DNA from: Octopus vulgaris
Taxonomy: Eukaryota
Assembly: GCA_951406725.2 (NCBI GenBank)
Contig: OX597823.1
Coordinates: forward strand, 105,152,001-105,216,000
Reading direction: 5' to 3'
Length of the DNA stretch: 64,000 nucleotides
The notes beneath the pieces are model-generated. The model was not told the DNA's origin. It was given only the letters and a program-made list of their open reading frames with translations, and ran no database searches. The position numbers and the translations under genes were made by a program. Positions 4,695 through 58,190 of this stretch are shown in pieces (position 1 is the stretch's first letter; each line of letters begins with the position of its first letter).

Positions 4695-5000
4695 GATTGC
4701 TGGCAGAATTGTTAGTGTGCCGGGCAAAATGCTTAGTGGCATCTGTCTATATGTTCTGAGTTCAAATGGTACCGAGATTTATTTTGCCTTTCATCCTTTT
4801 GGGGTCGATAAAATAAGCACCAGTTGACTCTGGGGCCAACGTAATCTATTTATCACCCACCTCCAAATTTAAAACCAATATTTGCTTTCATCCCTTAAGA
4901 AATTTGCTTTTCAAATATGTGGCTTCAGGTTCAATTCTGCAGTATGGCACCTTGGGCATGTGTTTTCTGCTATAGCCCCAGGTCAATCAAAGCCTTGTAA
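4695..5000 (+). mobile_element. SINE family A copy followed by a family B 5' half
   Basis: gctggcagaatt...gagttcaaat...gcctttcatcc, then caccttgggcatgtgttttctgctatagcc. Confidence 0.75.
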
Positions 5001-6390: not shown

Positions 6391-6608
6391 AAGGCGGTGA
6401 GCTGGCAGAATCATTAGCATGCCGGGTGAAATGTTGAACAGTATTTTGTCTGCTGCTACATTCTGAGTTCAAATACCACTGGGGTTGACTTTGCTTTTCA
6501 TCCTTTTGAGGGTCAATTAAATAAGTATCAGTTATGTACTGGGGTTGATGAAATCGACTAGCCCCTCCCCCAAATTTCAGGATTTGTGCCTATAGTAGAA
6601 AAGATTAT
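6391..6608 (+). mobile_element. SINE family A (tRNA-like head, conserved core, cccctccccca tail type)
   Basis: A-box-like ggcggtgagctggcagaa, B-box-like gagttcaaat, core ctttcatcc...taagta. Confidence 0.85.
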
Positions 6609-8249: not shown

Positions 8250-8501
8250 TACTTCTTTCTTTCTTTCTTTATTCCTTCCTTCCTTTCTTTATTTCTTTCT
8301 CTCTTCCTTTCTTTCTCTTTATTCCTTTCTTTCTTTCTTTCTTTCTTTATTCCTTCCTTCCTTCCTTCCTTCCTTCCTTTCTTTATTTCTTTCTCTCTTC
8401 CTTTCTTTCTCTTTATTCCTTTCTTTCTTTCTTTTTTCTTTCTTTCTTTATTCCTTCCTTCCTTCCTTCCTTCCTTTCTTTATTTCTTTCTCTCTTCCTT
8501 C

Positions 8502-8579
<78 letters not shown>

Positions 8580-9179
8580 CTCTTCCTTTCTTTCTCTTTA
8601 TTACTTTCTTCATTCCTTTCTTTCTTTCTTTCTTTCTTCCTTTCTTTCTTTCTTCCTTCCTTTCTTTCTTTCTTTCATCTTTCCTTTCTTTCTTTCCTTC
8701 TTTCTTTCTTTCTTTCTTCCTTTCTTTCTCTTTATTCCTTTCTTTCTTCCTTTCTTTCTTTCTTTCTTTCTTTATTCCTTTCTTTCTTTCTTTCTTTCTT
8801 TATTCCTTCCTTTCTCTTTCTTTCCTTCTTTCTTTCTTTCTCTCTTCCTTTCTTTCTCTTTATTCCTTTCTTTCTTTCTTTCTTTATTCCTTCCTTCCTT
8901 CCTTCCTTCCTTTATTTATTTCTTTCTCTCTTCTTTCCTTTCTCTTTCTTTCTTTCTTTCTTTCTTTCTTTATTCCTTCCTTCCTTCCTTCCTTCCTTTC
9001 TTTATTTCTTTCTCTCTTCCTTCCTTTCTCTTTCTTTCTTTCTTTCTCTCTTCCTTCCTTTCTCTTTCTTTCTTTCTTTCTTTCTCTCTTCCTTTCTTTC
9101 TCTTTATTACTTTCTTCATTCCTTTCTTTCTTTCTTCCTTTCTTTCTTTCTTTCTTTCTCTCTTCCTTCCTTTCTCTTT

Positions 9180-9214
<35 letters not shown>

Positions 9215-9250
9215 CTCTTCCTTTCTTTCTCTTTATTACTTTCTTCATTC

Positions 9251-9317
<67 letters not shown>

Positions 9318-10050
9318 TCCTTTCTTTCTTTCTTTCTTTCTTTCTTCCTTTCTTTCTTCTTCCTTTCTTTCCTTTCTTTCTTTCTTTCTCTCTTCCTTTC
9401 TTTTTTTCTTTCTTTCTTTCTATCTTCCTTTCTTTCTCTTTCTTCCTTTCTTTCTTCCTTTCTTTCTCTCTTCCTTTCTTTCTCTTTCTTTCTCTCTTCC
9501 TTTCTTTCTTTCTTTCTCTTTATTCCTTTCTTTCTTTCCCTCTTCCTTTCTTTCTCTTTATTCCTTTCTTTCTTTCCCTCTTCCTTTCTTTCTCTTTCTT
9601 CCTTTCTTTCTCTTTTCCTTCCTTTCTCTTTCTTCCTTTCTTTCTTTCTTTCTCTCTTCCTTTCTTTCTCTTTATTCCTTTCTTTCTTTCCCTCTTCCTT
9701 TCTTTCTCTTTCTTTCTTTCTCTCTTCTTTTCTTTCTCTTTATTCCTTTCTTTCTTTCTTTCTCTTTTCCTTCCTTTCTCTTTCTTTCTTTCTTTCTTTC
9801 TTTCTCTCTTCCTTTCTTTCTCTTTATTCCTTTCTTTCTTTCTCTTTCTTTCTTTCTCTCTTCCTTTCTTACTCTTTATTCTTTTCTTTCTTTCTCTCTT
9901 CCTTTCTTTCTCTTTCTTTCTTTCTCTCTTCTTTTCTTTCTCTTTATTCCTTTCTTTCTTTCTCTCTTCCTTTCTTTCTCTTTATTCCTTTCTCTCTTCC
10001 TTCCTTCCTTCCTTCCTTCCTTTCTTCCTTTCTTTTGTTTTTTCTTCTTC
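8250..10050. repeat. 1.8-kb polypyrimidine (TTTC/TTCC)n compound satellite
   Basis: Directly visible, with recurring higher-order units such as ctctcttcctttctttctctttattcc. Confidence 0.97.
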
Positions 10051-16239: not shown

Positions 16240-17299
16240 TACGAGGGAGAGTCATAAATTATATGCACTCTTGTATTTTCAATGTATTTACAGAAAAGCA
16301 GAGGATAAACAATTACGTTATTTTTCTATGCAGTCTCCTTCCTTTTTGATGCTCTTGGTCTGGTGGTGCACTGCTTCTTTTCCATCTTCATCTGTAGGAA
16401 ATTGACAACCTCATAAACCATCTTTGAGCAGACCAAAGATATAATAGTCAGAAGGGGCAAGATCTTGGTTGTAGGTAGGCTGTTCCAGCACCTCAAACCC
16501 AGCTGGCAGAAACATTAGCACGCCGGGCGAAATGCGTAGCCGTATTTCATCTGCCATTACGTTCTGAGTTTGAATTCCGCTGAGGTTGACTTTGCCTTTC
16601 ATCCATTCGGGGTCGATTAAATAAGTACCAGTTACACACTGGGGTCGATATAATCGACTTAATCCATTTGTCTGTCCTTGTTTGTCCCCTCTATGTTTAG
16701 TCCCTTGTGGGCAATAAAGAAATAAGAAACTGCAGAAGCCAGGCGAAATGCGTAGCCGTATTTCATCTGCCATTACGTTCTAAGTTCAAATTCCGCCGAG
16801 GTCAACTTTGCCTTTCATCCTTTCGGGGTCGATAAATAAAGTACCAGTTATGCACTGGGGTCGATGTAATTGACTTAATCCGTTTGTCTGTCCTTGTTTG
16901 TCCCCTCTGTGTTTAGCCCCTTGTGGGTAGTAAAGAAATAGGTTAATGGGTTCAACAATCTGGGAGTGCATTGTCATGCAACAACAAAACTTTCTTCAAC
17001 AATAGGCTTCGGTGTTTGGTCCAAATTGCTGGCTTCAGTTTGTCAGCCAGCACAGCACTGTATCTTGCACTGTTGATCATAAACCCCAGAGAAATCGGAT
17101 CACTGCTCTTTGTTCTTCTTTGGTGCACATTCCTAGTGGAGCGGCCATGCTTACATTGTAAAACCAGAAAGAAAAATGGTGCAATCAGGCTAAAACTTTG
17201 ATGATGTGACCACAATACTACCAACTATAAGAAGGCAGTGTGACAGTAATGAAGATATGTTATGGCGAAAGTGTGGATACTTTTTGACTTACCCTCGTA
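16240..17299 (-). mobile_element. Internally deleted mariner transposon, split by a SINE dimer
   Basis: TA-flanked TIRs cgaggg..agtca. Motifs LLLHDNA and PTYNQDLAPSDYYIFGLLK (YSPDLAPSD type). Confidence 0.85.
16501..16940 (+). mobile_element. SINE family A dimer with Tx1-type tail
   Basis: Two head-to-tail units ending ttgtcccctct.tgtttag.cccttgtggg..ataaagaaata. Confidence 0.9.
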
Positions 17300-20631: not shown

Positions 20632-21234
20632 AGAAGGTGGTGAGCTGGCAGAGTCGCTCGCATGCTGGACGAAATGCTTAGCAGTATTTCGTCTGACGCT
20701 ACATTCTGAGTTCAAATTCCGCCGAGGTCATCTTTGCCTTTCATCCTTTCAGGGTCAATTAAATAAGTACCAGTTACATACTGGGGTCGATATAATCGAC
20801 TTAATCTGTTTGTCTGTTCTTGTTTGTCCTCTCTGTGTTTAGCCCCTTGTGGGTAGTAAAGAAATAGGTATTTCATCTGCCGCTACGTTCTGAGTTCAAA
20901 TTCCTCCAAGGTCATCATTGCCTTTCATCCTTTCAGGGTTGATTAAATAAGTACCAGTTATGCACTGGGGTTGATATAATCGACTTAATCCGTTTGTCTG
21001 TCCTTGTTTGTCCTCTCTGTGTTTAGCCCCTTGTGGGTAGTAAAGAAATAGGTATTTCATCTGCCGCTACGTTCTGAGTTCAAATTCCTCCAAGGTCGTC
21101 ATTGCCTTTCATCCTTTCAGGGTCGATTAAATAAGTACCAGTTATGCACTGGGGTTGATATAATCGACTTAATCCGTTTGTCTGTCCTTGTTTGTCCTCT
21201 CTGTGTTTAGCCCCTTGTAGGTAGTAAAGAAATA
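20632..21234 (+). mobile_element. SINE family A trimer with Tx1-type tail and 17-bp TSD
   Basis: TSD ggatgcacttcctaaca at 20615-20631 and 21235-21251. Units 2 and 3 lack the A-box head. Confidence 0.92.
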
Positions 21235-21479
21235 GGATGCACTTCCTAACATGCTTCAATTTACAAAGTTGCAATGAGTGCCTTTAATAATAACTTAATT
21301 TTTGACCTTTTCCTGCTTTGTAAAATCTTACTTGATAATTCTTGAGGGAAAGGCACCGTCTTCACAAATTCTCCTAGACTGGTGACATTGATGGCATTAC
21401 TGTTCTTCTTGAGCATTTGTTGGTCAACATCTGCAGGAAAGATATGGCCAAAGGAGGGAATTCTAGCATGTTGAGGTTC

Positions 21480-23559: not shown

Positions 23560-23862
23560 AGAGATTGGTAACATATTTATCAACTTCACTGAGGGAAAAG
23601 GTAAAGTTGACCTGACCTGTATGGGATTTGAACTCAAGAGTGCAGAGAGCCAGAACAAATACTGCTTAGTGGCCTTTTGTCTGTCCTTACGTTCTGAGCT
23701 AAAATTCCACCTAGGTCGACTTTGCCTTTCATCCTTTCAGGGTTGATAAAATTAAATGCCAGTTCAATACTGGGGTCCAATACAGTCCAATATCGGGGTC
23801 GATGTGATCGACCGTCCCCTTCCTTCATATTCCAGGCCACGTGAAAGGATTATTATTATTAC
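23560..23862. mobile_element. Divergent pair of family A SINE remnants
   Basis: Minus-strand gagttcaaatcc core at ~23580-23660 and a plus-strand copy at 23660-23862. Confidence 0.65.
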
Positions 23863-24909: not shown

Positions 24910-25114
24910 GTTATATATGGAGATATATTTATATATAACTAGCATTATGACCTGTTGTTGCCGGGTCATAGTGCTAGTGCATGTATATATGTGTATATAT
25001 ATGTGCACATATTACATGTACATCTATATATATACATCTACACATAAAATACAAAATACAAAGTTATATCTTGATATCACTAGTGATAACAATACTCAAA
25101 ATATATAACAGACT

Positions 25115-25430
25115 GGAATTGTAAGCCCGTCTCTTGCAATTTCGATCAATTGTATCTTGTCCTCCCTCTTGTATAGAAGTGTGGCTACAATCCAGCCAAC
25201 CTCAACTTCTGGGGAGGGGGGGGGGCATTTTAAATTTTTATCCAGCACGTTCTACGTCCCAGATATAAAGGTAAAAATAAAATATTTACACTTTGCAAGT
25301 TCGAGTCGAGTACTCCCTTGCATGCTCCGTTGACTCAAACCTTGCTTCTATTGTGGCGAATTTACCGCCTCTGGTTAGATATCTTTCATAGTCGCACCAA
25401 GACACTTTTCGATGGTGCTTTCCTCCAGGT
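25115..25430 (-). pseudogene. Old Tx1-type ORF1 fragment, downstream half
   Basis: LEESTIEKCLGAT..YLTRGGKFATIEARFESTEHAREYS..NILFLPLYLGRRT aligns with the ORF1s at 29390-30391 and 31161-32036. Confidence 0.8.
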
Positions 25431-25675
25431 TGTTTTATTATTACCCACAAGGGGCGAACATAGATAGGACAATACAATCTGATGTGGGGTCAGACACACG
25501 AATGGGTTTTTACAATAAAATGAGTTTAAAAATTAACATGAAATTACAAAATATACACAAAATCGAATGTTAGAACAGACCGGAAGACATTACGGGTGGA
25601 GTGGGTGCGGGTTTAGCTCGGACCCCACGAGCCCCGCCTCCCCACTGATACTTTTGGTTGCGCTTGGTATTACAT

Positions 25676-28600
25676 TTATGTTGTATCTTTCACTCGCAAC
25701 TTTCGTGCTACATCTTTCCATCGTTCTTCATACACTCTCCTAGTCAGGCATATTCTCTCCAGCCCTATCTTCCTTTTCAGGTGAAAGATGAAATAATTCA
25801 TCAAACCAGGGTCGGAGATGAACTTGCCTGACTGTAAACCTTTCATTCTCGTCTTCCATATCACCTCTTTCGCAATTGCTACTACAACGAGAAAACGAAA
25901 CTTACCTTCATTCACGAGGAAATCCGGTGGGTCAATTTTTGTAATCGACTCAGTCGACAGCTGTACTCTTCGTGTACCTGACAACAGCTGTTCGGCATAA
26001 ACCCACACCTCAGACACGTCCGGACAATGAACAATAGCGGTGCGGGACGGTTTCCCTATCCCGCCCGCATCTTGGACATATCGGACTGTCTTGGCCACCG
26101 TGCCTTGCGAGTTTATCTCGAACAGGTAGAGCTCCTCTGTAGCATTACCATGCCAGAGACTTCTGGAAGTTGTCCAGTGTCCTCGGCTTGAACGTACGTC
26201 GGAACAGACTGGCCAGCTGATTATCGTCGAGACCTAGGGCTTCTCCCAAGGTATCTTCACATTCCGCCTCTACCAACCCTCTATAGAAGAATGTGGTGGA
26301 ACCCCCACCGCAGGCGTTGCCTGAGCGATGGAATAGCAGGAGAGCCTTGCGACACTCCGTGTACCAAGTACCAAGTTTCGATCTACGATTCAGCCAGGTT
26401 TCCCATCCACCGAAACTAGTGAACTTGGGAAACATCAGTTTTGCTAGCGAAGACCACACCCGTTCACCATCCAGGTAGAGCCACAGATGTCTTAACCTCA
26501 GCGCATGTCTGCGCATCATCAGCCAAGGCATCCCTAGCCCACCCTTTAACGGTTGTTGACAGCAAGTAGAGCGTTTCACAAGTGGTTTCCCACCCTTCCA
26601 CAAGAAGCAGAAGAGCTGTCTTTCCAACTTGATCAACCACGAATCAGGGCAAGGAACGACGGAAAGGCGGTAGGTGATAACCGATGCGATAAACACATTG
26701 GCCACCTCCGCCCTCCCTTTCAGGGATAGCCACCGCCAAGACCAGGTCTTGGCTACTGCAGCCACCTTGCTCGTTACCTCGCCCCAATTCTTCTCTATTT
26801 GGAGGTCTGGACCGAACCAGACCCCTAGCAGTTTAATCGGACCCTCCGTCCAACGTCCCACGACGCTGTCAGGAGGCATCGACTTGCCTCTCCAGGTGCC
26901 GAGTTGCAAGCCGACTGACTTTTCGCGATTAACTTTTGCTCCTGTCACCGTCTCGTAAACCTCTATGGCCTTGCCTACTTTACATAGGTGGTCCATTTCG
27001 GTTACGATGATGGTGATGTCATCCGCGTATGCTGACACTGATTTTCCATTACCTGGCTGTCTCAGGATGCCGCTCAGTTTTCGCAGTAATGGCTCGAGAG
27101 CCATCACGTACAAAAGCGGGGAGAGCGGACACCCTTGACGAACCGAGCGTTTGATTTTGAACGGCTTCGACAAGAAGCCGTTCACCCGAACTACCGAGTC
27201 GATGTTATCATACATTTGGATAATCCACCTGAGGAAGCCAAGGCTCAGCCCGAACTGTGCCAGGGCAGATACCAGGTAACGATGGTCGACCCTATCAAAG
27301 GCTTTAGATTGGTCTAAATGGACCAGTACCCCACCCTTGCCAGAATCACTATTAAACCCCTCTATAGTGTACCGCATTAGATGGAGATTATCCTGAATGG
27401 ATCTGCCCGGAACGGCACATGTCTGTGCCTCTCCGATCAGACCATCCGCGACACGCGCCAATCTTTTCGATAACACTTTGGCCAAAATCTTCAACTCTGT
27501 GTTTAGCAGAGTGATGGGCCTGAAATTATCAATGCACTCCCCCTTGCTCGGGTCCTTTCTGACGAGAGTCACTACTCCCCGGCGCACAGATCTGGGTATA
27601 AGCCCGTTCTGCTGCCAGTTCGCATAGACCTCCGCCAGTAGGTGCCCGAACAAGTCTGGCATACTCTTATATAACTCATAGGGTAGACCATCCAAACCCG
27701 GTGCCTTGCCTGCGCCGCAGTCCGCCATTGCCTCAAACACCTCCTCAGGCGTGATTGGCCCTTCACAGCCCTCCGCATCTCGCCCCGATAAGCGCGGCAG
27801 CCCGTCGAGTAGGTCCGTAAAGGCCCTCCTCCTATCCAGTCCGCCGCACTCACCGAAAAGCTGAGCGAAGTGCTCCTGAAAGGCCTCACACATCTTCTCG
27901 GGTTCGTTTATCAACTCACCTTGTTGGTTCGTCAAAGATCGAATCGTGGCATCATTACCATGCTGAGCTTCCACCAATCGGGCCCATCTCATGGCGTTGA
28001 TTCCTTCACATCCCATATGGCGGATTCTAGCCCTGACAATGCAGCCCATGTGTTTGGCCTCGAGGTGCTGGTTTAACACCAGTCTCTTAGACGCCACCTG
28101 AACCGCAGAGCCAGTTTTCATGGCTTCCTCTAATTCCTTAACTAGAGTAGTTTCCCTTCTAGCCTCTCTAGCCACTACTCCTATGCTATATCTAATAGAC
28201 TCAAACTTGATGGCTCGTTTGAGGGCGTACCACCATTTGTTATTAATGATGGTACCAGATAGTGCCCTCTGAATTATATTCCTAATCTGGTCTTTGTACT
28301 CCTTAATCGCCAGAAGGGACGTATTAAGTTTCCAGTAACCGGATCCTCTATTTTTAACCTTATCTATGTCAAGCTTACAAGTGACCATTTTATGATCACT
28401 GTAGCTGATCGGGTAAAACTGTGGACACTTAGCTATTTTACTGTCTACCTTTCTAATTAGTATTCTATCTAAATATGACCTGGAAGATCCGTCGCTGTTT
28501 GACCATGTCCACAATGGAGCGTTCGGAAATTCCAGCCTGTAAGGATCTGCTAGCTCAAAGCGGCTTAGCAGTTCCATGAAGCCACTGTTACCTTTCCTAT

Positions 28601-29073
28601 CTGGACGTGAGCCAACGCAATCTACATCCGCTTTGCAAATTGTGTTAAAGTCTCCTAGCACCACTAATGAATGCGAAGTACCAAGAAAGTTTTCTAGTTC
28701 ACGAAAATAATCACTTTGCCCTGTACTGTTGGGTGCGTAAATTGCAACCAGTCTGATAACTTTACCATTACTGAACGTCAAATCCATGACGACCAGCCTA
28801 CCTTCTGGATCTGCAAAAATTAACTTTTTTCTCAGAAACCCGGTTTCTTTTTAATAGGACCAACACCCCACTCCCGCCTGTAGGACTGCCAGGAGAGAAA
28901 AAACTCTCGTAGCCGTCAAACAGCGGGAGTAGACCTCTTGGCCCCTCTAACCGGGTTTCTGTAGCAACAATAACATCTAAATTACGCGACCTGATATCAT
29001 GCAGGAAGCGACCTTGCTTCCAGCCTGCTCCCAGGCCGCGCACATTCAAACAACCAACATAAATGTAATCCAT
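25676..29073 (-). pseudogene. ORF2: AP endonuclease, reverse transcriptase and C-terminal Cys/His domain, with few disablements
   Basis: CLNVRGL, ATET, GDFN, YLDRI, SDH (APE); KAPGLDG, FRPITLLN, LDQSKAFDRV, VRQGCPLSP, AYADD (RT). Frameshift near 28790 and disruption near 26145. Confidence 0.95.
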
Positions 29074-29081
29074 TACTTACC

Positions 29082-30391
29082 TTATATCAGTGGTTCGGTT
29101 TTTTCTTTTTCTTCTTTGTTTGTCTCTTTTTCTGGGCCTCGTGGGGGAGTCTGACGCAGGCCCTCGAATATATATGGAGATGTTATATCCATTCTGAGCG
29201 GGCCTACGTCATGAAAAAATTTGGACTTTATCCGTCCGTAATCCTTCCGGCCTATTCTGTACAATACATAGTCATTTTTCCTCCCTATTTTTTCTACTTT
29301 GGCCATCGCTGCCAACACATTACCGAGTCTATTGTTCGTGGCCTTAACGGCCATAAATGAGTTCAACGACTCTCTTTTCTTCTTTTGGTTTACTTTGGGA
29401 GGGGTGGTTTCAGTTTTTCTTTTTTTCTAGTGATTTTTGACCACCCCTCCTCCTTTTTCGTTTCCTCGCTCTTTTTTTCCTCCGCCGCTGGTTCCGCTGC
29501 CTCTGTCACCTCCACACCTTCAGCCGTCCCTCCTGGGCCGCCCAGCGCTGCTTCTGATGACACCTCTTCTGCTTTTCCATTTGGCTGAGCTGCTTCCTGC
29601 GGTTTGGGTTGGCATTCTGCCCTTACATGCCCTTTCTTACCGCAGCCGAAGCACCTCGGCTTTCTGCCCTCTACGAAGACTGTGACTCTATCTTCTTCGC
29701 TTATTTTTAGAGTCTCTGGAATCTCCTCCAGGGTTTGTATTTCTGCCTGGATGGCTATTATTATCCGCTGCCCTTTCCAGAATTCTTCCTCCTCTACAGT
29801 GGCCTGGAGGATGTTTATTTTTTCCTCCAGGCCTACCATAACTGCTGCCACCAGAACTTCAGCATCCGCTTCTGGCGGAATATTATTCATAGTGATCTTT
29901 GATGTTCTTTTGCCTCTATACAGGGGTAGGAGAACAATATTCTCCGCTTTTATTGGTTCCATGGATAGCTTTTTAGCTACCTCCTCTGTTGTGAATCTCA
30001 CCTCCACTGTGCCGTATTTCTTCCCTCGATTGATGTATGTGATCTTATCCATTATCGGCTTTAAGCAATTTTCGATTTTTTTCTCCTCTATTTTTTGTAT
30101 TGATTTGCTTGTTGTATTGAAGGTCTTATAAATTATTCTTCTTTTTGTAATTTCTTCCTGTTTTTGGGCGTTTGAAGCCACGGTTACTTCCGTGCCCTCT
30201 TTTGACACACAGTCCACCTTTAGGTTTTCGACATTAATTTTTTTAATTTTCTTACCAGCTACTTCCGAAAATTTTTTCGCTGGTGCTGGAATATCTTTTT
30301 TCTTTGGCGACCCCGCCTCTTTTTTCTTTGGCGACACCGCCGGTGATCCTGCATCACTAGTCACAGGTGAATATGAGATGGGGGATTCCAT
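29082..30391 (-). pseudogene. ORF1 gag-like protein with CCHC zinc knuckle
   Basis: 333-aa ORF containing CFGCGKKGHVRAEC. It continues after a frameshift near 29395 into 29082-29366. Confidence 0.88.
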
Positions 30392-30616
30392 CTCCGATAA
30401 CTGGCTTTAACAAGCCCTTGGCACAACCAAGATAATGATAGTTTTTCCCCCACGGAGGGGGGAATACCAACACGAAGCCTTCGCACGAAGGCTGACTTCA
30501 ACAGTTGTACAACAATACAGAAAGACAGTTAGACACACAGTAGATTATAACGGAGAAAATATACACAAGGCAAAATATAATAACTCACTATACACTCGAA
30601 TTGATTTCCTCCAGGT

Positions 30617-32387
30617 GATTTTATTACTACCCACAAGGGGCGAACATAGAGGGGACAATACAATCGGGGAACTTAAAATAAGAAAGCGAAATGACAAGAA
30701 AGGAAAAAATAAAAAGTAAAAATGACAAATGAAAGAATATTTACAATGAGATGCAAATGCCCACTCGATCCCCGGAATCGAGAGGTTACATTTTCGTCAC
30801 ATATAGTTCACAATTTTTTTTTCTTTTTCTCTTCTTTCTTCTCTCTCCTCTCACAATCTCACACGTATTCCATAATACCTTTCAAGTCTCTAAAGTCAAT
30901 CACTGAGCCCTCAGGCAGCCGCTCTTTCATTCGAACACCCGTGTAAAAAATTACACTCTCTCCAGCTGCTCTGAGGAACTCAGCGACTCTTTCTTCGGGG
31001 ATCAGAGCAGTCTCCTGCCACTGATCAGTCATCCTGTTGACCCACACATGTCCCTCCGTACTACATGTCAATTCCTTCATTTCGGGGCTGAAATGGAAGG
31101 TTATTAACTTGTAGTAATCTTGTTTCCGTCCTACGTTTTCTCTCGTTTTTCTTTTCGGGCTTACTTCTTCCTTGTTCTCCTCTCTTTGTTTCTCTCTTTC
31201 TCTCTTTTTGCCTTCTTTTCTTTCTTCTTCCTTCTCTTGTCTTTTTGGTTCTTTGTCTGTTCTCTCTTTCTCTCGTGTTTTATGTTCCTTTTCTTTTTCT
31301 TTTGTGTGCCGTCTTTTCTTTTCGTTTGATTCTGATCTCTCTCTTGTTTTTTTCCTGTTGTTTCTTTTTCCTTTTTCTTTTCCTGACTCTGTTTTGGTTC
31401 TATTTCTTTCTTTTCTTTTATTTCTTTTTCCTTCGTTGACTTATTATTTCCTTTCTCTTGTTGTTTTGTCTCCTTTTCTATGTTTTCTTTTTCATTTACC
31501 GTATTCTTCTTTCCTTCAAGTTCCTTCTCGCACTCCGCCATGAATTCGTATAACGGGCACTCTTTTTTAATGTGCCCCCTTGTCCCGCACAAGTAGCAGT
31601 TTGGCTTTCTTCCCTCTACAATTACACTGAGGGTTTTCTCGTCTTCGATTTCTATTCTATAGGGGAACCTTTCAATGTCCTCTTTTGTGGCCATCAAACA
31701 CAGTTCTACCCCATATCCTCTCCAATTTACTGCGTTGGACTCCTTAAAGGATTCCACCTCCACTTCCTCTTCTGCTGCTCCTAGAATAGCTGTTGCCAGC
31801 CATTCTGTTTTTACTTCTGGGGGTATATTCGGGATTTTAACCCGGACCCCTCTTCTTCCCTTGTATGAGGGCCACATTATAAATGTTTCCGCTCTTAGAA
31901 CAGTGGTAGCCAGTGAGGCTGCAATTTCTTCCGTTGCACATCTCACCTCCACCGTACCAAATTTTTTTCCTCTACTCACGTAGGTCGATTTATCCATTAT
32001 GTCTCCCAGACATTTTTCGATCTCTGCTATCTCCACTCTTGCCAGTTTCTTTGTACTTTTGTCCTGGGTTCTATACGTTACAGTTTTGTTTTCCTTTGTC
32101 CTCCTTTGCTTTCACGGGGGGATTAGCTTCACGCTATCACCCTCCCTTTTGAATAGCTTTTCATATTCTTTGATTTTACTTTTCTCAAAGAAAACATCCT
32201 TCACGATTATTGCCGAATCATTATTATTCTTTCCCGTGACCCCCGCGTAAGTCGCCATGACTAGAGGGTCAATTCACCTTCTTCTGAAGGTTTCCAAACG
32301 TGGAGGCAAACGCCTCGCGCGATATTAATCACTTTACACAACAAAATTTCACTGTCTAATCACAGATAACAACACGCAAAAAAATGA
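30617..32387 (-). mobile_element. ORF1-only (HAL1-like) element, copy 1
   Basis: ATG at 32258 (MATYAGVTGK), one TGA where copy 2 has CGA, CYLCGTRGHIKKEC knuckle, K/E-rich linker, C-terminal domain to 30859. No RT. LINE-type 3' tail. Confidence 0.88.
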
Positions 32388-32399
32388 TTTCCTCCAGGT

Positions 32400-34163
32400 G
32401 ATTTTATTACTACCCACAAGGGGCGAACATAGAGGGGACAATACAATCGGGGAACTTAAAATAAGAAAGCGAAATGACAAGAAGGAAAAAATAAAAATAA
32501 AAATGACAAATGAAAGAATATTTACAATGAGATGCAAATGCCCACTCGATCCCCGGAATCGAGAGGTTACATTTTCGTCACATATAGTTCACAATTTTTT
32601 TTTCTTTTTTCTCTTCTTTCTTCTCTCTCCTCTCACAATCTCACACGTATTCCATAATACTTTTCAAGTCTCTAAAGTCAATCACTGAGCCCTCAGGCAG
32701 CCGCTCTTTCACTCGAACACCCGTGTAAAAAATTACACTCTCTCCAGCTGCTCTGAGGAACTCAGCGACTCTTTCTTCGGGGATCAGAGCAGTCTCCTGC
32801 CACTGATCAGTCATCCTGTTGACCCACACATGTCCCTCCATACTACATGTCAATTCCTTCATTTCGGGGCTGAAATGGAAGGTTATTAACTTGTAGTAAT
32901 CTTGTTTCCGTCCTACGTTTTCTCTCGTTTTTCTTTTCGGGCTTACTTCTTCCTTGTTCTCCTCTCTTTGTTTCTCTCTTTCTCTCTTTTTGCCTTCTTT
33001 TCTTTCTTCTTCCTTCTCTTGTCTTTTTGGTTCTTTGTCTGTTCTCTCTTTCTCTCGTGTTTTATGTTCCTTTTCTTTTTCTTTTGTGTGCCGTCTTTTC
33101 TTTCGTTTGGTTCTGTTCTCTCTCTTGTTTTTTTCCTGTTATTTCTTTTTCCTTTTTCTTTTCCTGACTCTGTTTTGGTTCTATTTCTTTCTTTTCTTTT
33201 ATTTCTTTTTCCTTCGTTGACTTATTATTTCCTTTCTCTTGTTGTTTTGTCTCCTTTTCTATGTTTTCTTTTTCATTTACCGTATTCTTCTTTCCTTCAA
33301 TTTCCTTCTCATACTCCGCCATGAATTCATATAACGGGCACTCTTTTTTAATGTGCCCCCTTGTCCCGCACAAGTAGCAGTTTGGCTTTCTTCCCTCTAC
33401 AATTACACTGAGGGTTTTCTCGTCTTCGATTTCTATTCTATAGGGGAACCTTTCAATGTCCTCTTTTGTGGCCATCAAACACAGTTCTACCCCATATCCT
33501 CTCCAATTTACTGCGTTGGACTCCTTAAAGGATTCCACCTCCACTTCCTCTTCTGCTGCTCCTAGAATAGCTGTTGCCAGCCATTCTGTTTTTACTTCTG
33601 GGGGTATATTCGGGATTTTAACCCGGACCCCTCTTCTTCCCTTGTATGAGGGCCACATTATAAATGTTTCCGCTCTTAGAACAGTGGTAGCCAGTGAGGC
33701 TGCAATTTCTTCCGTTGCACATCTCACCTCCACCGTACCAAATTTTTTCCTCTACTCACGTAGGTCGATTTATCCATTATGTCTCCCAGACATTTTTCGA
33801 TCTCTGCTATCTCCACTCTTGCCAGTTTCTTTGTACTTTTGTCCTGGGTTCTATACGTTACAGTTTTGTTTTCTTTGTCCTCTTTTGCTTTCGCGGGGGG
33901 ATTAGCTTCACGCTATCACCCTCCCTTTTGAATAGCTTTTCATATTCTTTGATTTTACTTTTCTCAAAGAAAACATCCTTCACGATTATTGCCGAATCAT
34001 TATTATTCTTTCCCGTGACCCCCGCGTAAGTCGCCATGACTAGAGGGTCAATTCACCTTCTTCTGAAGGTTTCCAAACGTGGAGGCAAACGCCTCGCGCG
34101 ATATTAATCACTTTACACAACAAAATTTCAACGTCTAATCACAGATAACAACACGCAAATAGA
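32400..34163 (-). mobile_element. ORF1-only (HAL1-like) element, copy 2
   Basis: Near-identical to copy 1 at an offset of ~1782, with different small indels. Confidence 0.88.
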
Positions 34164-34170
34164 TTTTGGA

Positions 34171-34240
34171 CAGGTGTTCAAATCTTCTTTTTTCTCTACA
34201 TTGTATACTTTATAGACAATAGTCTTTTCTTTAATTTAAT
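34171..34240 (-). pseudogene. Old Tx1-type ORF1 fragment, upstream half
   Basis: IKEKTIVYKVYNVEKK..FEHL joins EESTIEKCL at ~25425 once the array is removed. Confidence 0.7.
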
Positions 34241-34818
34241 TTTTTATTATCCATCCGGACTATTCCATTTCTGCACGCTAATTTTATTTTTAATTTATTC
34301 CCACTCATGTGAAACCACTTATTCAAGTTCAAGTCATTGATGCAATTTTATACCAATTGTTATTTTTACTTTTGTTATGTTACGATTATATTATACTTTA
34401 GTTTGATTTTAATTATTACTTACTACATATAATTCAATTGTTATTATTATTTTTATCGTTAAAGTGAAAGTATCTGACATAAAATAGAGAAATGTTTTTG
34501 TTTCACTTTTAACACGTAATACTAAAATAGTGGAGAAGATATGATATTGCTATGGGCTCGCTCTAGGCAAGAAGTTGAACATTTTTTTTGCCCATGAAAC
34601 TACATGGACCCTAAGTAAGGCATGTGTAAAATTTGAATGAAATTGGTTGTGTAGTTCTCAAGTTTTAGGGAAACACACAGACAGACACACATTCTCAGTT
34701 TTATATATATAGAGGGACATATGCTACATATATATTCTTCCTGAACGTCAAACTAACACACTTGCTTGCTGTTCCCTCACCTGCCTTTGTCTTTTGTTTT
34801 CAGTACATTTGAACCAGG

Positions 34819-42659: not shown

Positions 42660-43125
42660 ATAGGTGTGTGGCTTCGTGGTTAGGTTGTTGGACAAATGTT
42701 TGTAAGATTGTGGTTTCTATTCTTGGTCTAGGTGACATGTGTTCTTGTGCAAAACACTTCATTTCATGTTGCTCCAGTACATTCAGCTGGCAAAAATGAG
42801 TAAGCCTGCAATGGACCGGCGTCCCTTCCAGGAGGAAAATATACAAAAACCAGGAAACTATAAGTCTATACGACTTGGAAAGGAGCTAATATATAAATTC
42901 AACTGTAATATTGGCTTCAAATCTTGGCCCAAGGCCAGTAACTTTGGGGAAGGAGATAAGTCAATTACATCAACCCCAGTGGTCAACTGGTACTTATTTT
43001 AACAACCCTAAAAGGATGAAAAGCAAAGTCAACCTTGGCGGAGTTTGAACTCAGAACGTAAAGATGAGTAAAATGCTGCGAATCATTTTGCCAAGCATGC
43101 TAATGTTTCATTTAGCTTGTCACCT
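42660..43125. mobile_element. tRNA-derived SINE (+, 42660-42880) and family A SINE (-, 42905-43125)
   Basis: gtggcttcgtggttagg head with gcaatggaccggcgtcccttccagg; reverse ggatgaaaagcaaagtcaacc...gaactcagaac. Confidence 0.7.
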
Positions 43126-46522: not shown

Positions 46523-47230
46523 CCAGACAAAATGCTTAATGGTATTTCATCTGCTGCTACATTCTGTGTTCAAATTCTGCTGGGGTTGACTTTGCTTTTC
46601 ATTCTTTTGGGGTTGATAAATTAAGTACCAATCAAGTATTGGGGTTGATGTGATTGACTTACCCAATTCCACAACATTTCAGGCCTTGTACCTACAGTAG
46701 AAAGGATTATTATTATTATTATTATTGTTATTAAGGCGGTGAGCTAGCAGACTCGTTAGAATGCTGGGCAAAATGCTCAGTACTTCACCCATTCACTACA
46801 TTCTGAGCTCAAATTCTGCCAAGGTTGACTTTGCCTCTCATCCTTTTAGGGTCGATAAATTAAGTACGAGTGAAACACAAGGATTGATATAATCAACTTA
46901 TCCCCTCCCCAAAAATGGCTGCCCTTGTGGAAAAATTTGAAACCATTATTATTATTATTACTATTATCATTTATTTATTTTTTTTTGTTGGTATTATTAC
47001 AATTACAGATAAAGTGGTGAACTGGCAGAATTGTCAGCATGGCAGGCAAAATGCATGGTGGCATTTTGTCCTTTCTTATGTTCTGAGTTCAAATTCCACT
47101 GAGGTCGACTTTGACTTTCATCCTTTCGGGATCGATAAATTAAGTACCAGTTGCGTACAGGTGTCAATGTAATTGACTAGTTCCCTACCCCATAATTTCA
47201 GGTCTTGTGCCTTTAGTAGAAAGCATTATT
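46523..47230 (+). mobile_element. Three consecutive family A SINEs with (ATT)n tails
   Basis: Cores at ~46560, 46800 and 47080, each followed by an attattatt tail. Confidence 0.85.
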
Positions 47231-47595
47231 ACAGATAAAGATGTTGAAGCTTCATTTGAAAAGAAACGAAAAACACGAATACTAGTGGATGGTGAGTGGT
47301 TAGACTGGTTGCTTCAAACATTGATTTGCTTTGTTTGTATTTGTTTTCTGTTTTTAAACAATGACAGCAAGCAAGATCTGTTTAGTTATTTGTAATCATT
47401 ATAAAAAGATAACTGGCATGTTGATGTGCCATCGGATTAATTACAATTGCTCTATAATAGCAGAGGATCAGATGAAATACAAACGTAAATGCTGTCTGCT
47501 TTCAACGAGATGTTTTACTCATTTCACTGATTTCGTTTTGGGATTTGGTTTGCAAGATTCTTTATATGAGTTCATGTGTTAAAGCATATTCTGTT

Positions 47596-47853
47596 GTGTC
47601 TGGAGAGAGTCATTTTCTTTTTGTGCCTTATAATTTAACACACTCACCGGTAAAATTTCCACTTTTTTCTTATTTTTATTTTCCTAAAATTTTCGTTGCG
47701 TCTTGTAACCTTTTCAATAGTTTTGACTCTATTGAAAAGGTTGCAAGACGCAACGAAAATTTTAGGAAAATAAAAATAAGAAATAAGTGGAAATTTGACC
47801 GGAGAGTGTGTCACATTACAAGGCACAAAAAGAAAATGATTCTCCCCAGACAC
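47596..47853. repeat. Fold-back palindrome (~125-bp arms) with a hammerhead next to the loop (47728-47766)
   Basis: tcta TTGAAAA g gttgc-aagac-gcaac GAAA atT T tagg. Confidence 0.85.
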
Positions 47854-48194
47854 TGTAATACCATTTCTATTGAAATCTTTATTTACTCATTTTACCCCAC
47901 TTATCTAATTCCTTTTTGTATGATTTTCACTGTGTATCTATTGATGCTTTTAATCCTTTAGAACTCAGATTATTGCCAACAGTAATGTTTACTTAATCAG
48001 ATTGATTTGAATTAATCATGCATTATCTCATAGCTTTGAAATTTTTATGACGTGATTGTTTATTTTTAGAATGACATTGTAGGATAAGTGTGAAAGATCA
48101 GATCTGTCCTATTTGAACATAAAGCAACTAGAATATTTTGGCCGGTTATAATGCTAAAGGGTTAAATCTTTTTGCAAGACACTGTTATAATTTA

Positions 48195-48645
48195 TTGGTT
48201 GCGCATTTTGGGGCAAGGTCAGCACTTTTTGAAGGAGCAGTAAGTTGATTACATCGACCCCAGTGTTCAACTGGTACTTATTTTATTGACCCTGAAAGGA
48301 TGAAAGGCAAGGTTGACCTCACTGAAATTTGAACTCAGAATGCAAGGATGGATGAAATGCAGCTAAGCCTTTTACCTGGTGTGCTAATGATTCAGCCAGC
48401 TCAATGCCATAATTTAGGGATGTGAGGTACACAGAAAATAACAACCATAACAACAATCAAAATACTATAGGTACAAGGCCTGAAATTTGGAGGGAAGGGG
48501 TAAGTCAATCACATTGACCCCAGTGTTCAACTGGTACTTATTTTATTGACACCAAAGAGGTGGGAGGCAGTATTTGAACTCAGAATGTATAAAATGCTGC
48601 TAAACATTTTATCCAGTGACATAATGATTCTGCCAGCTCACCATT

Positions 48646-48689
<44 letters not shown>

Positions 48690-48855
48690 CCTTTCTGCTA
48701 TTGGCACAAGGCTTGAAACTTGGGGGATGGGAATAGTTTAATATATTGACCCAAGTACTCAACAGGTACTTATTTTCTTGACCCCAAAAGGATGAAAGGC
48801 TAAGCTGACCTCAGCAGAATTTGAATTCAGAATGTAAGGATGGACGAAATGCCAT
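48195..48855 (-). mobile_element. Three family A SINEs
   Basis: Repeated ggtacttattt...aaaggatgaaaggc...gaactcagaat. Confidence 0.8.
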
Positions 48856-51280: not shown

Positions 51281-51868
51281 GGTGAGTTGGCAGAACCGTT
51301 AGCACACTGGGCGAAATGCTTAGCAGTATTTCGTCTGCCGTTACGTTCTGAGCTAAAATTCCGCCGAGGTCGACTTTGCCTTTCATCCTTTCGAGGTCGA
51401 TAAATTAAGTTATGCGCCGGGGTCGATGTAATCGACTTAATCCGTTTGTCTGTCCTTGTTTGTCCCCTCTATGTTTGGCCCCTTGTGGGTAGTAAAGAAA
51501 TAGGTATTTCGTCTGCCGTTACGTTCTGAGTTCAAATTCCACTGAGGTCGACTTTGCCTTTCATCCTTTCGGGGTCGATAAATTAAGTACCAGTTATTTA
51601 CTGGGGTCAATGTAATCGACTTAATCCATTTGTCTGTCTTTGTTTGTCCCCTCTGTTTAGCCCCTTGTGGGTAGTAAAGAAATAGGTATTTCGTCTGCCG
51701 TTATGTTCTGAGCTCAAATTCCGCTGAGGTCGACTTTGCCTTTCATCCTTTCGGGGTCGATAAATTAAGTACCAGTTACGCACTGGGGTCAATGTAATCG
51801 ACTTAATCCCTTTGTCTGTCCTTGTTTGTCCCCTCTGTGTTTAGCCTCTTGTGGGCAATAAAGAAATA
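51281..51868 (+). mobile_element. SINE family A trimer with Tx1-type tail and 17-bp TSD
   Basis: TSD agggatat(g/a)caccaaac at 51264-51280 and 51869-51885. Confidence 0.92.
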
Positions 51869-57649: not shown

Positions 57650-58190
57650 AAGGTAGTGAGCTGGCAGAATTGGTAACATACCAGCTAAAATGCTAAGTGG
57701 CATTCATGTTCTGAGTTCAAATCCTACTGTACCTTTCCTTAGTCTATTACATTGACCCCAATGTTTCACTGGTACTTAATTTATTGAACCTGAAAGGATG
57801 AAAAGCAAAGTGGATCTCAGTGGAATTTGAACTCAGAATCTAAGGATGGATGCAATGCTGCTAAGTATTTTACTCACAGTGCTAATGATTCTGCCAGTTT
57901 GCAGCCTTAATAAGAATAATAATAACAATGGACTCTATCGTCGAAGATGATGTATGATTGTTCAACTTTTGCCAAAAGCCCTGCACAAATGATTTGTTTA
58001 TAGTGATCAAATGTTCGTGCTGTACATTGGCTCACTCTCTCCATTGAATTGATGTTGCCTGAACAGATCCTAATCTCAGGTGTCGACCACAAGATGAAGT
58101 GATTTGCTCAAGAACACAAGGCACCACTCGATCTAGAAATTGAAACCATTATCTCACATTTGTGAGTACAACACCCTAACCTCCAGACCA
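57650..58190. mobile_element. Family A SINE pair (+/-) and a family D SINE (-)
   Basis: ggtagtgagctggcagaa at 57652, reverse core at 57750-57905, family D match at 57930-58190. Confidence 0.7.

Follow-up and report, generated by a model that had tools for sequence, protein, structure and literature searches.

A Helitron-targeting L1/Tx1-group LINE, its ORF1-only relatives and a SINE with a related 3' tail in Octopus vulgaris

Animal L1-group retrotransposons are the textbook "relaxed" type, whereas stringent pairs of long and short interspersed elements (LINEs and SINEs) within the L1 clade are known in plants and a green alga, namely maize ZmSINE2 with LINE1-1_ZM and Chlamydomonas SINEX-3 with L1-1_CR (PMC3747384). 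In crocodilians, Tx1 families target DNA transposons, with two sites per target, tandem insertion, and target-derived 5' extensions (PMC4494074). Here, we describe a locus of Octopus vulgaris within a stretch of 64,000 nucleotides (contig OX597823.1, positions 105,152,001 to 105,216,000; G000:C10:105152001-105216000), which is called the window; genome-wide counts were made on the 2.8-Gb genome. On its minus strand, two elements that encode only open reading frame 1 (ORF1) and one full-length LINE of the L1/Tx1 group were found head to tail, and the same 3' tail terminates all three. Probably, the LINE and its ORF1-only relatives stack at a site in a Helitron through recognition of this tail by the LINE ORF2 protein, while the related tail of an abundant SINE derives from the same clade and the SINE itself was moved by another family.

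As in the crocodilian Tx1-Mar/SINEU system, the octopus Tx1-group LINEs prefer a DNA transposon and have two preferred sites in one target, and the dependent elements share the target, stand in tandem around the duplication, and may carry target-derived 5' extensions (PMC4494074). The crocodilian target is Mariner or Harbinger, whereas the octopus target is a Helitron. For SINEU-1, no LINE with a common 3' end is reported in the accessible text, whereas the octopus SINE shares the tail but not the target; the same part of that account mentions neither an ORF1-only partner nor long polarized arrays (PMC4494074). Xenopus Tx1L in Tx1D is likewise a Tx1 LINE inside a non-autonomous DNA transposon, but Tx1D is of the piggyBac type and the octopus site lies in an apparently captured ORF1-like fragment of the Helitron (PMC4494074). 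Head-to-tail arrays of ORF1-only elements and reverse transcriptase donors that grow from one end are also formed by Drosophila HeT-A, TAHRE, and TART; these belong to the Jockey clade, occupy chromosome ends and have a host role, whereas the octopus arrays belong to the L1/Tx1 group and lie in interstitial Helitron copies (PMC6719617).

The maize and Chlamydomonas pairs resemble the octopus system in having a conserved hairpin tail of about 45-50 nt common to an L1-group LINE and a tRNA SINE, although the octopus hairpin is smaller and less well supported (PMC3747384). The pair table of that paper, in its accessible part, holds plant and green algal L1-clade pairs only, with no Tx1 pair and no animal L1-clade pair. 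Bivalve SINEs have partners among CR1, CR1-Zenon, L2, and Nimb (PMC11481361), and no octopus Tx1 partner was found in the accessible parts of PMC4824008, PMC4758252, PMC8869645, PMC3472496, and PMC8967140. Among the papers listed by literature searches, none had a title or displayed text describing a Tx1 family with a Helitron target or an octopus SINE that ends in a Tx1 tail; such families may be catalogued in Repbase, in Dfam, or in the supplements of PMC13282606. Each ingredient has a precedent; the literature searched held neither their combination, nor a Helitron as the target, nor a tRNA-type SINE with the tail of an animal L1/Tx1 clade.

The insertion block and its Helitron target

Read 5' to 3' on the minus strand, ORF1-only copy B is followed by copy A and then by the full-length LINE. 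The block is bracketed by two halves of one Helitron, and an identical run of 12 bases stands directly after each of its tails, as read from the sequence. The original prediction overlooked this target specificity and the array structure, and its coordinates were too short, leaving the second ORF1-only copy outside. The features of the block are as follows.

34176-34715, minus strand: 5' half of the Helitron-like repeat (95% identity to the 5' part of an empty copy; 5' end motif in 23 of 28 empty copies)
34162-34175, minus strand: 5' junction with an altered target-site copy (4 of 12 bases unlike the downstream copy)
32400-34161, minus strand: ORF1-only copy B, full length (98.8% identical to copy A)
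32400-32446, minus strand: shared 3' tail of ORF1-only copy B
32388-32399, minus strand: 12-base target-site copy between the ORF1-only units (from sequence)
30617-32387, minus strand: ORF1-only copy A, 1.77 kb (zf-CCHC; no reverse transcriptase or endonuclease match)
About 30859-32258, minus strand: ORF of ORF1-only copy A, broken by frameshifts
30617-30663, minus strand: shared 3' tail of ORF1-only copy A (135 exact 36-base matches in the genome)
30605-30616, minus strand: 12-base target-site copy between the ORF1-only element and the LINE (from sequence)
25431-30604, minus strand: full-length L1/Tx1-group LINE, 5.17 kb (RVT_1 and Exo_endo_phos)
29390-30391, minus strand: LINE ORF1 with one CCHC knuckle, shorter than the forms of 433-450 amino acids (aa) in other copies
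25676-29076, minus strand: LINE ORF2 with endonuclease and reverse transcriptase, interrupted by frameshifts close to 28820 and 26040 and by a stop at 26145 (reference, a natural intact copy of 1,133 aa)
25431-25479, minus strand: shared 3' tail of the LINE (small hairpin predicted; end rich in A)
25414-25430, minus strand: target site A, downstream copy, 16-17 bases (follows 23 of 30 LINE 3' ends; full 16-base duplication around the 5'-truncated LINE L366)
25105-25430, starting upstream of the target at 34176-34230, minus strand: decayed ORF1-like fragment in the Helitron (tblastn of LINE ORF1 against 9 empty copies, best E 2e-7)
Near 25120, within the decayed ORF1-like fragment, minus strand: target site B
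24939-25430, minus strand: 3' half of the Helitron-like repeat, ending in a hairpin and CTAG (94% identity to an empty copy)

The LINE ORF2 comprises an apurinic-type endonuclease followed by a reverse transcriptase (Pfam). Its best solved relative was human L1 ORF2p (E 5e-61, with R2 at 3e-25), so by sequence the LINE is classed in the L1 group (L1/Tx1) of non-long-terminal-repeat retrotransposons. The best-scoring named relative of ORF2 was an Argonauta protein. The label Tx1 reflects this membership together with the targeting behavior, as the ORF2 relatives returned included no named Tx1 reference; the clade prefers repeats or microsatellites, with Helitron sites here and (ATT)n and (TATC)n in sister families. 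The copy in the window is broken by two frameshifts and one stop in ORF2, while more than 35 of the 150 LINE copies among the matches listed keep ORF2 open over about 1,130 codons.

Joined together, the Helitron flanks make up a 1.1-kb repeat whose start is of the TC type and which closes with a terminal hairpin and CTAG. The hairpin was found in 24 of 28 empty copies, and CTAG followed by T in 22 of these 24. With a TC start, a subterminal hairpin, a CTRR end before T, and a captured fragment, the host repeat is identified from its sequence as a non-autonomous Helitron. In 28 of the 30 Helitron loci the site was empty, the flanks being joined over a single copy of the target bases. The target region is a decayed fragment of an ORF1 of this type, aligning to residues 86-201 in the LINE ORF1 (best E 2e-7, 9 loci), and we read it as a piece of ORF1 captured by the Helitron.

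Occupancy of the target was observed directly. Among the best 30 LINE 3' ends, 23 were followed by site A, 3 by a site copy and another unit, and 4 by other sequence. Exact pattern matching in the genome gave 892 empty sites, 89 junctions of tail and target, and 314 tails. The first 100 of these 314 tails, chosen so as to avoid picking best hits, were classified by hand and represented 63 loci. Of these, 35 lay at site A and 8 at site B, which is in this Helitron too (2 of the 8 were judged from the left flank and spacer only); 5 were assigned to site C, 12 lay elsewhere, and 3 were undetermined. Sites A and B together placed 43 of the 63 loci within this Helitron. In the arrays at site B (L141, L158, L160, L169) the left Helitron flank often stops before site A, which suggests an internally deleted Helitron variant. 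Site C belongs to a second repeat, with 5 loci in or beside it, and no similarity was found when that repeat was compared with the Helitron; its downstream part has a resemblance that we take to be of the mariner type. At the loci L155, L163, L165, L168, L187, L190, L200, L201, and L208, site C holds insertions of the window's LINE lineage and of the sister lineage within a few dozen bases. The target of the LINE lineage has changed at least twice.

Target-site duplications of 16-18 bases were read by eye at five off-target loci, in addition to L366, and 8 of 28 sister-lineage tails had duplications of 13-20 bases. Two odd insertions were also noticed: one LINE (L165:4001-7595) has an inverted 130-base 3' piece on its 5' side that resembles a 5' inversion, and at L055 / L175 a truncated copy of the window's LINE family lies inside a SINE head, at a spot like site A.

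Arrays, their polarity, and their junctions

Six fully covered arrays, chosen for their many tails, were compared, and all six have Helitron halves on both sides. The largest contains 22 ORF1-only units and one LINE; LINEs, two ORF1-only lineages, and 5'-truncated units occur among the arrays. In a tree of the units rooted on two relatives of 86-87% identity (arrays with 4 or more units, two of them each minus one unit), the 3' units branched basally and the 5' units were derived in 5 of the 6 arrays (Spearman -0.75 to -1.0). For several units, the closest relative lies in an array on a different contig; copy B is one of these, differing from such a unit at 4 positions, as against 14 from copy A.

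These arrays might also have arisen mainly by DNA-level duplication, through unequal crossover between target copies or rolling-circle copying of occupied Helitrons, with a single retrotransposition per locus. Such an origin would suit the runs of near-identical neighbors in the 22-unit array and some units that appear recombinant in the tree, and unequal recombination between target duplications has been proposed for bivalve SINE arrays (PMC11481361). However, we regard it as improbable, since LINEs occur in these arrays alongside two ORF1-only lineages and 5'-truncated units, truncation points differ at the same site, neighbors with up to 89 differing bases match units on other contigs, and unit order tracks subfamily age in 5 of 6 arrays.

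The junctions suggest how successive insertions could be accommodated. All 7 arrays examined, that of the window included, have a 5' junction in which 2-5 of 12 bases are unlike the downstream target copy, while the spacer beside the 3' end was unchanged in 5 of 7. Truncated or off-target copies have full duplications of 16-18 bases, whereas full-length units keep only about 12 target bases, followed by their own target-like 5' end. Subfamilies at sites B and C have 5' ends that resemble those respective sites, and the off-target full-length copies L154, L172, and L173 have carried with them a few bases that precede the usual cut site. Because the target-like 5' ends and the carried upstream bases fit it, we infer that the RNA may start just upstream of the site and that the cDNA end may anneal to the target.

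Under the mechanism that we favor, the LINE ORF2 protein would recognize the tail, cut the fixed Helitron site, and copy in its own RNA and that of the ORF1-only element, each insertion duplicating 16-18 target bases. In full-length units, the far part of the upstream target copy would be replaced by the target-like 5' end of the element, likely by annealing of the new cDNA. This would rebuild the cut site at the 5' junction and let the next element land before the previous one, so arrays would likely grow at their 5' end and preserve the order in which subfamilies followed one another. ORF1-only elements would keep ORF1 likely because it acts on their own RNA, as its predicted RNA-binding folds could allow. 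Tail recognition by ORF2, mobilization in trans, the 5' annealing step, and the role of ORF1 are the parts that we infer.

The shared tail and the ORF1-only elements

The tail is about 46 nt long, and its sharing was directly observed at the places given by the original prediction: LINE 25431-25479, ORF1-only 30617-30663 and 32400-32446, and the SINEs at 16.5, 20.6, and 51.3 kb. A 16-base core of the tail was matched 9 times in the window, where chance would give 0.01. The ends of the LINE and the ORF1-only element are 90.6% identical over 64 nt (BLASTN), of which the last 12-14 nt are target copy and not tail; the SINE and ORF1-only tails are 83-89% identical over 46-47 nt (BLASTN, E 1e-8 to 9e-5). 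The description of the LINE and ORF1-only tails as nearly identical to the SINE end slightly overstates the match of the SINE.

It had been stated that lack of the tail on other LINE copies would make it a SINE remnant at this locus. The tail was present on all 30 of the best LINE 3' ends and is kept in six sister lineages, down to 57% ORF2 identity. In a sister lineage of 70-76% ORF2 identity it was found by pattern in 29 of 30 loci, the last locus having a variant; families at 57-58% ORF2 identity have a related tail followed by (ATT)n (30/30 loci) or (TATC)n (4 tails displayed, of 30 loci), and an older family also has a related tail. Based on its presence on 30/30 LINE 3' ends and its retention in sister lineages, the tail belongs to the LINE, and on this comparison we regard it as a clade-wide LINE tail, not a SINE remnant. 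Two of the families are young. One (L241-L270; G000:C4:93.80-93.83 Mb, C47, C50) has an ORF2 of 1,145 aa followed by (ATT)n in 30/30 loci and forms tandem arrays with a period of about 5.87 kb; the other (L291-L320) has an ORF2 of 1,149 aa, and its displayed tails are followed by (TATC)n.

The fold of the tail is plausible, and predicted, as a small hairpin. The stem-loop that the original prediction proposed to look for was recovered as a consensus hairpin of 4 bp in 26 tails, with 97% of cells paired, but single tails did not fold better than shuffles and covariation support was weak. In distant families the third stem pair is G-C instead of C-G, with pairing retained; alignment A2 was read by eye only, and its row F_289 has wrong coordinates. 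Could the LINE have acquired the tail from a SINE, or could the likeness be due to chance, the tail in either case having no part in mobilization? The SINE is more than 100 times as abundant and the predicted hairpin is weak. Nevertheless, the tail is terminal in every lineage sampled, including the families at 57-58% ORF2 identity that have other targets, stem pairing is kept with the third pair reversed from C-G to G-C (by eye), and coding and upstream untranslated sequences are far more diverged between lineages than the tail, which makes such an origin highly improbable.

The ORF1-only element encodes ORF1 only and ends like the LINE. HAL1 elements, by comparison, are poly(A)-tailed and are not known to be site-specific. 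Both are alike in that mammalian HAL1 is a non-autonomous L1 derivative in which only ORF1 is encoded (PMC5753468); unlike HAL1, the octopus element has an ORF1 only 27-28% identical to that of the LINE, occurs in at least two lineages, and stacks at a fixed site. Given this identity of 27-28%, the ORF1-only elements are not recent deletion products. Their intact ORFs have 466-493 aa. Selection on ORF1 was measured directly: among 4 intact copies, the ratio of nonsynonymous to synonymous substitution rates (dN/dS) was 0.11-0.19, with dS up to 1.9, and these values indicate an old lineage under purifying selection.

The structure model of the ORF1-only protein (mean predicted local distance difference test score 61) has two RRM-like folds and a knuckle, together with a long helix and a small domain at the C terminus. 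It matches tandem-RRM proteins (best Foldseek E 4e-5, single domains with Z about 8), and with moderate confidence we predict an ORF1 with RNA-binding folds and a CCHC knuckle. In one copy (L092:7943-9340) the C-terminal domain, of about 80 aa, has a predicted small alpha/beta fold and is unaligned with the LINE ORF1. A protein-cluster search gave CCHC clusters with a high score and ZCCHC3-type RNA-binding clusters with a somewhat lower one, which is a lead only.

A second ORF1-only lineage, of 25-28% identity and 454-471 aa when intact, was found at site A directly before the LINE in 7 of 20 loci, and it has a SINE-like end (L353, L356, L357, L359, L363, L367, L368). Genome-wide, 48 site A junctions have the end type of this lineage, 6 of which were viewed. 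At two viewed 5' junctions of the lineage, a few Helitron bases were removed and not duplicated. Because of the same tail, the same target site, the mixed arrays, and the LINE copies with open ORF2, the LINE family of the window is a plausible engine for the ORF1-only element; this half of the original claim, in which one Tx1 family drives two dependent classes, is retained, while its half concerning the SINE is unsupported.

The SINE and its likely partner

The window contains three SINE arrays with the related tail.

16500-16940, plus strand: SINE dimer
20636-21235, plus strand: SINE trimer (flanking direct repeat of about 17 bases, read by eye)
51281-51868, plus strand: SINE trimer (flanking direct repeat of about 17 bases, read by eye)

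Older copies that match these SINEs in head and core but lack the tail lie at 4699-4852, 6400-6559, 23641-23777, 42957-43109, 46523-48850, and 57741-57897, and SINE arrays often close with such a tail-less copy. At 8253-10046, a (TTCT)n microsatellite of 1.8 kb yields long spurious open frames. An A-box-like motif was found in 3 of 3 and a B-box-like motif in 2 of 3 SINE heads of the window using loose patterns, whereas scans with ARAGORN and Rfam gave no match for a tRNA origin; that origin is thus suggested by the box-like motifs. The MetaSINE/CORE/Deu central-domain motif had no match in the two searched supplements of PMC4824008.

The exact 28-base SINE tail occurs at least 52,328 times in the genome. 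Its absence from the LINE target was a direct observation: none of these tails was found at that target in the Helitron. Three were followed by the first six bases of site A, and 0 of the 3 lay in the Helitron, the pattern covering the main SINE variants only. Instead, 18,836 of 52,328 stood directly before a site that lies some 40 bases inside the head of the SINE itself, forming arrays of 180-184-base units, and duplications of 11-24 bases were present in 10 of 23 SINE chains. Median pairwise divergence was 9.8% for the SINE (n=31), 5.5% for the Helitron (n=40), and 3.4% for the LINE (n=40), the latter two sets being biased toward close copies and hence low; by these values the SINE looks older than the LINE. 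When the SINE tail was compared with 13 tails, scores ranged from 57 to 78 with no clear winner, the ORF1-only tail of the window's family being on top by 2 points. Two diagnostic positions of the SINE tail agree with a sister lineage, and the stretch just upstream of it agrees with the older family. The likely partner of the SINE is, on these comparisons, another family of the same clade.

The original proposal that the window's LINE family is the engine of the SINE was not supported, given that no SINE tail was found at the LINE target, and given the 18,836 tails at the SINE-head site, the greater divergence of the SINE, and a tail no closer to this family than to several others. A broader version, in which this LINE lineage or its direct ancestor before Helitron targeting drives both the ORF1-only element and the SINE, draws on the narrowly best score of the lineage's ORF1-only tail (78 vs. 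76, 74, and 71), on similar duplication lengths (16-18 bases for the LINE, 11-24 for the SINE in those 10 of 23 chains), on same-orientation arrays that both form at a site resembling their own 5' part, and on the two or more target changes, which make an earlier target possible. We consider it unlikely, because no SINE of the main variants was found at site A (the three tails with its first six bases being outside the Helitron), because the diagnostic positions and the upstream stretch fit the sister lineage and the older family, and because the median divergence of 9.8% compares with 3.4% for LINE 3' ends, a set biased to close copies.

We therefore return to the reading in which the LINE and its ORF1-only relatives share one machinery and the SINE is moved by another family of the clade. 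Several findings weigh against it. With respect to the arrays, array C9 has no polarity and only young units, six units of the largest array are 0-1 base apart, which local duplication explains equally well, and array p-values are not to be taken literally because of the array choice and the non-independence of units. An unbroken full ORF was present in only 4 of 65 ORF1-only units, by decay or assembly error. The tail hairpin has only 4 bp, six tails folded singly gave no better structures than shuffled ones (z -0.4 to +0.7), and covariation is weak, 25-48 of 500 shuffles matching the observed values. The exact partner of the SINE was not found in three genome searches. The second ORF1-only lineage has a SINE-like end yet occupies site A, so the protein of the window's LINE may accept a SINE-type end, and the absence of the SINE from site A could reflect timing alone.

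Some candidates for the partner were examined and set aside. LINE-type upstream sequence joined to a SINE-type end had 0 matches in one search and 2 in another, and these two look like SINE variants. A search anchored on the older family gave 128 matches, and the 30 that were viewed belong to the (ATT)n family, which has a different hairpin.

Beyond the locus itself, we tentatively suggest a wider scheme, which is possible but falls short of the confidence placed in the reading above. An animal L1/Tx1 clade would use stringent, hairpin-based recognition of 3' ends that supports several ancient ORF1-only lineages and a very abundant SINE. One of its branches would use a Helitron-captured piece of an ORF1 akin to its own as a self-renewing landing pad, with transcription from just upstream of the cut site and the target rewritten at each 5' junction, and its HeT-A-like arrays would form a timeline of the family. 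If true, the conserved tail that links an animal L1/Tx1 clade with a very abundant SINE of tRNA type would extend stringent recognition to the animal branch and would identify the clade responsible for a major SINE expansion of the octopus. At single loci, the polarized arrays would document, in order, how subfamilies succeeded one another and how targets were switched, and the system would allow a direct test of why ORF1-only elements keep ORF1. Moreover, it offers a site-specific integrator of natural origin, for which intact copies exist and empty targets number in the hundreds.

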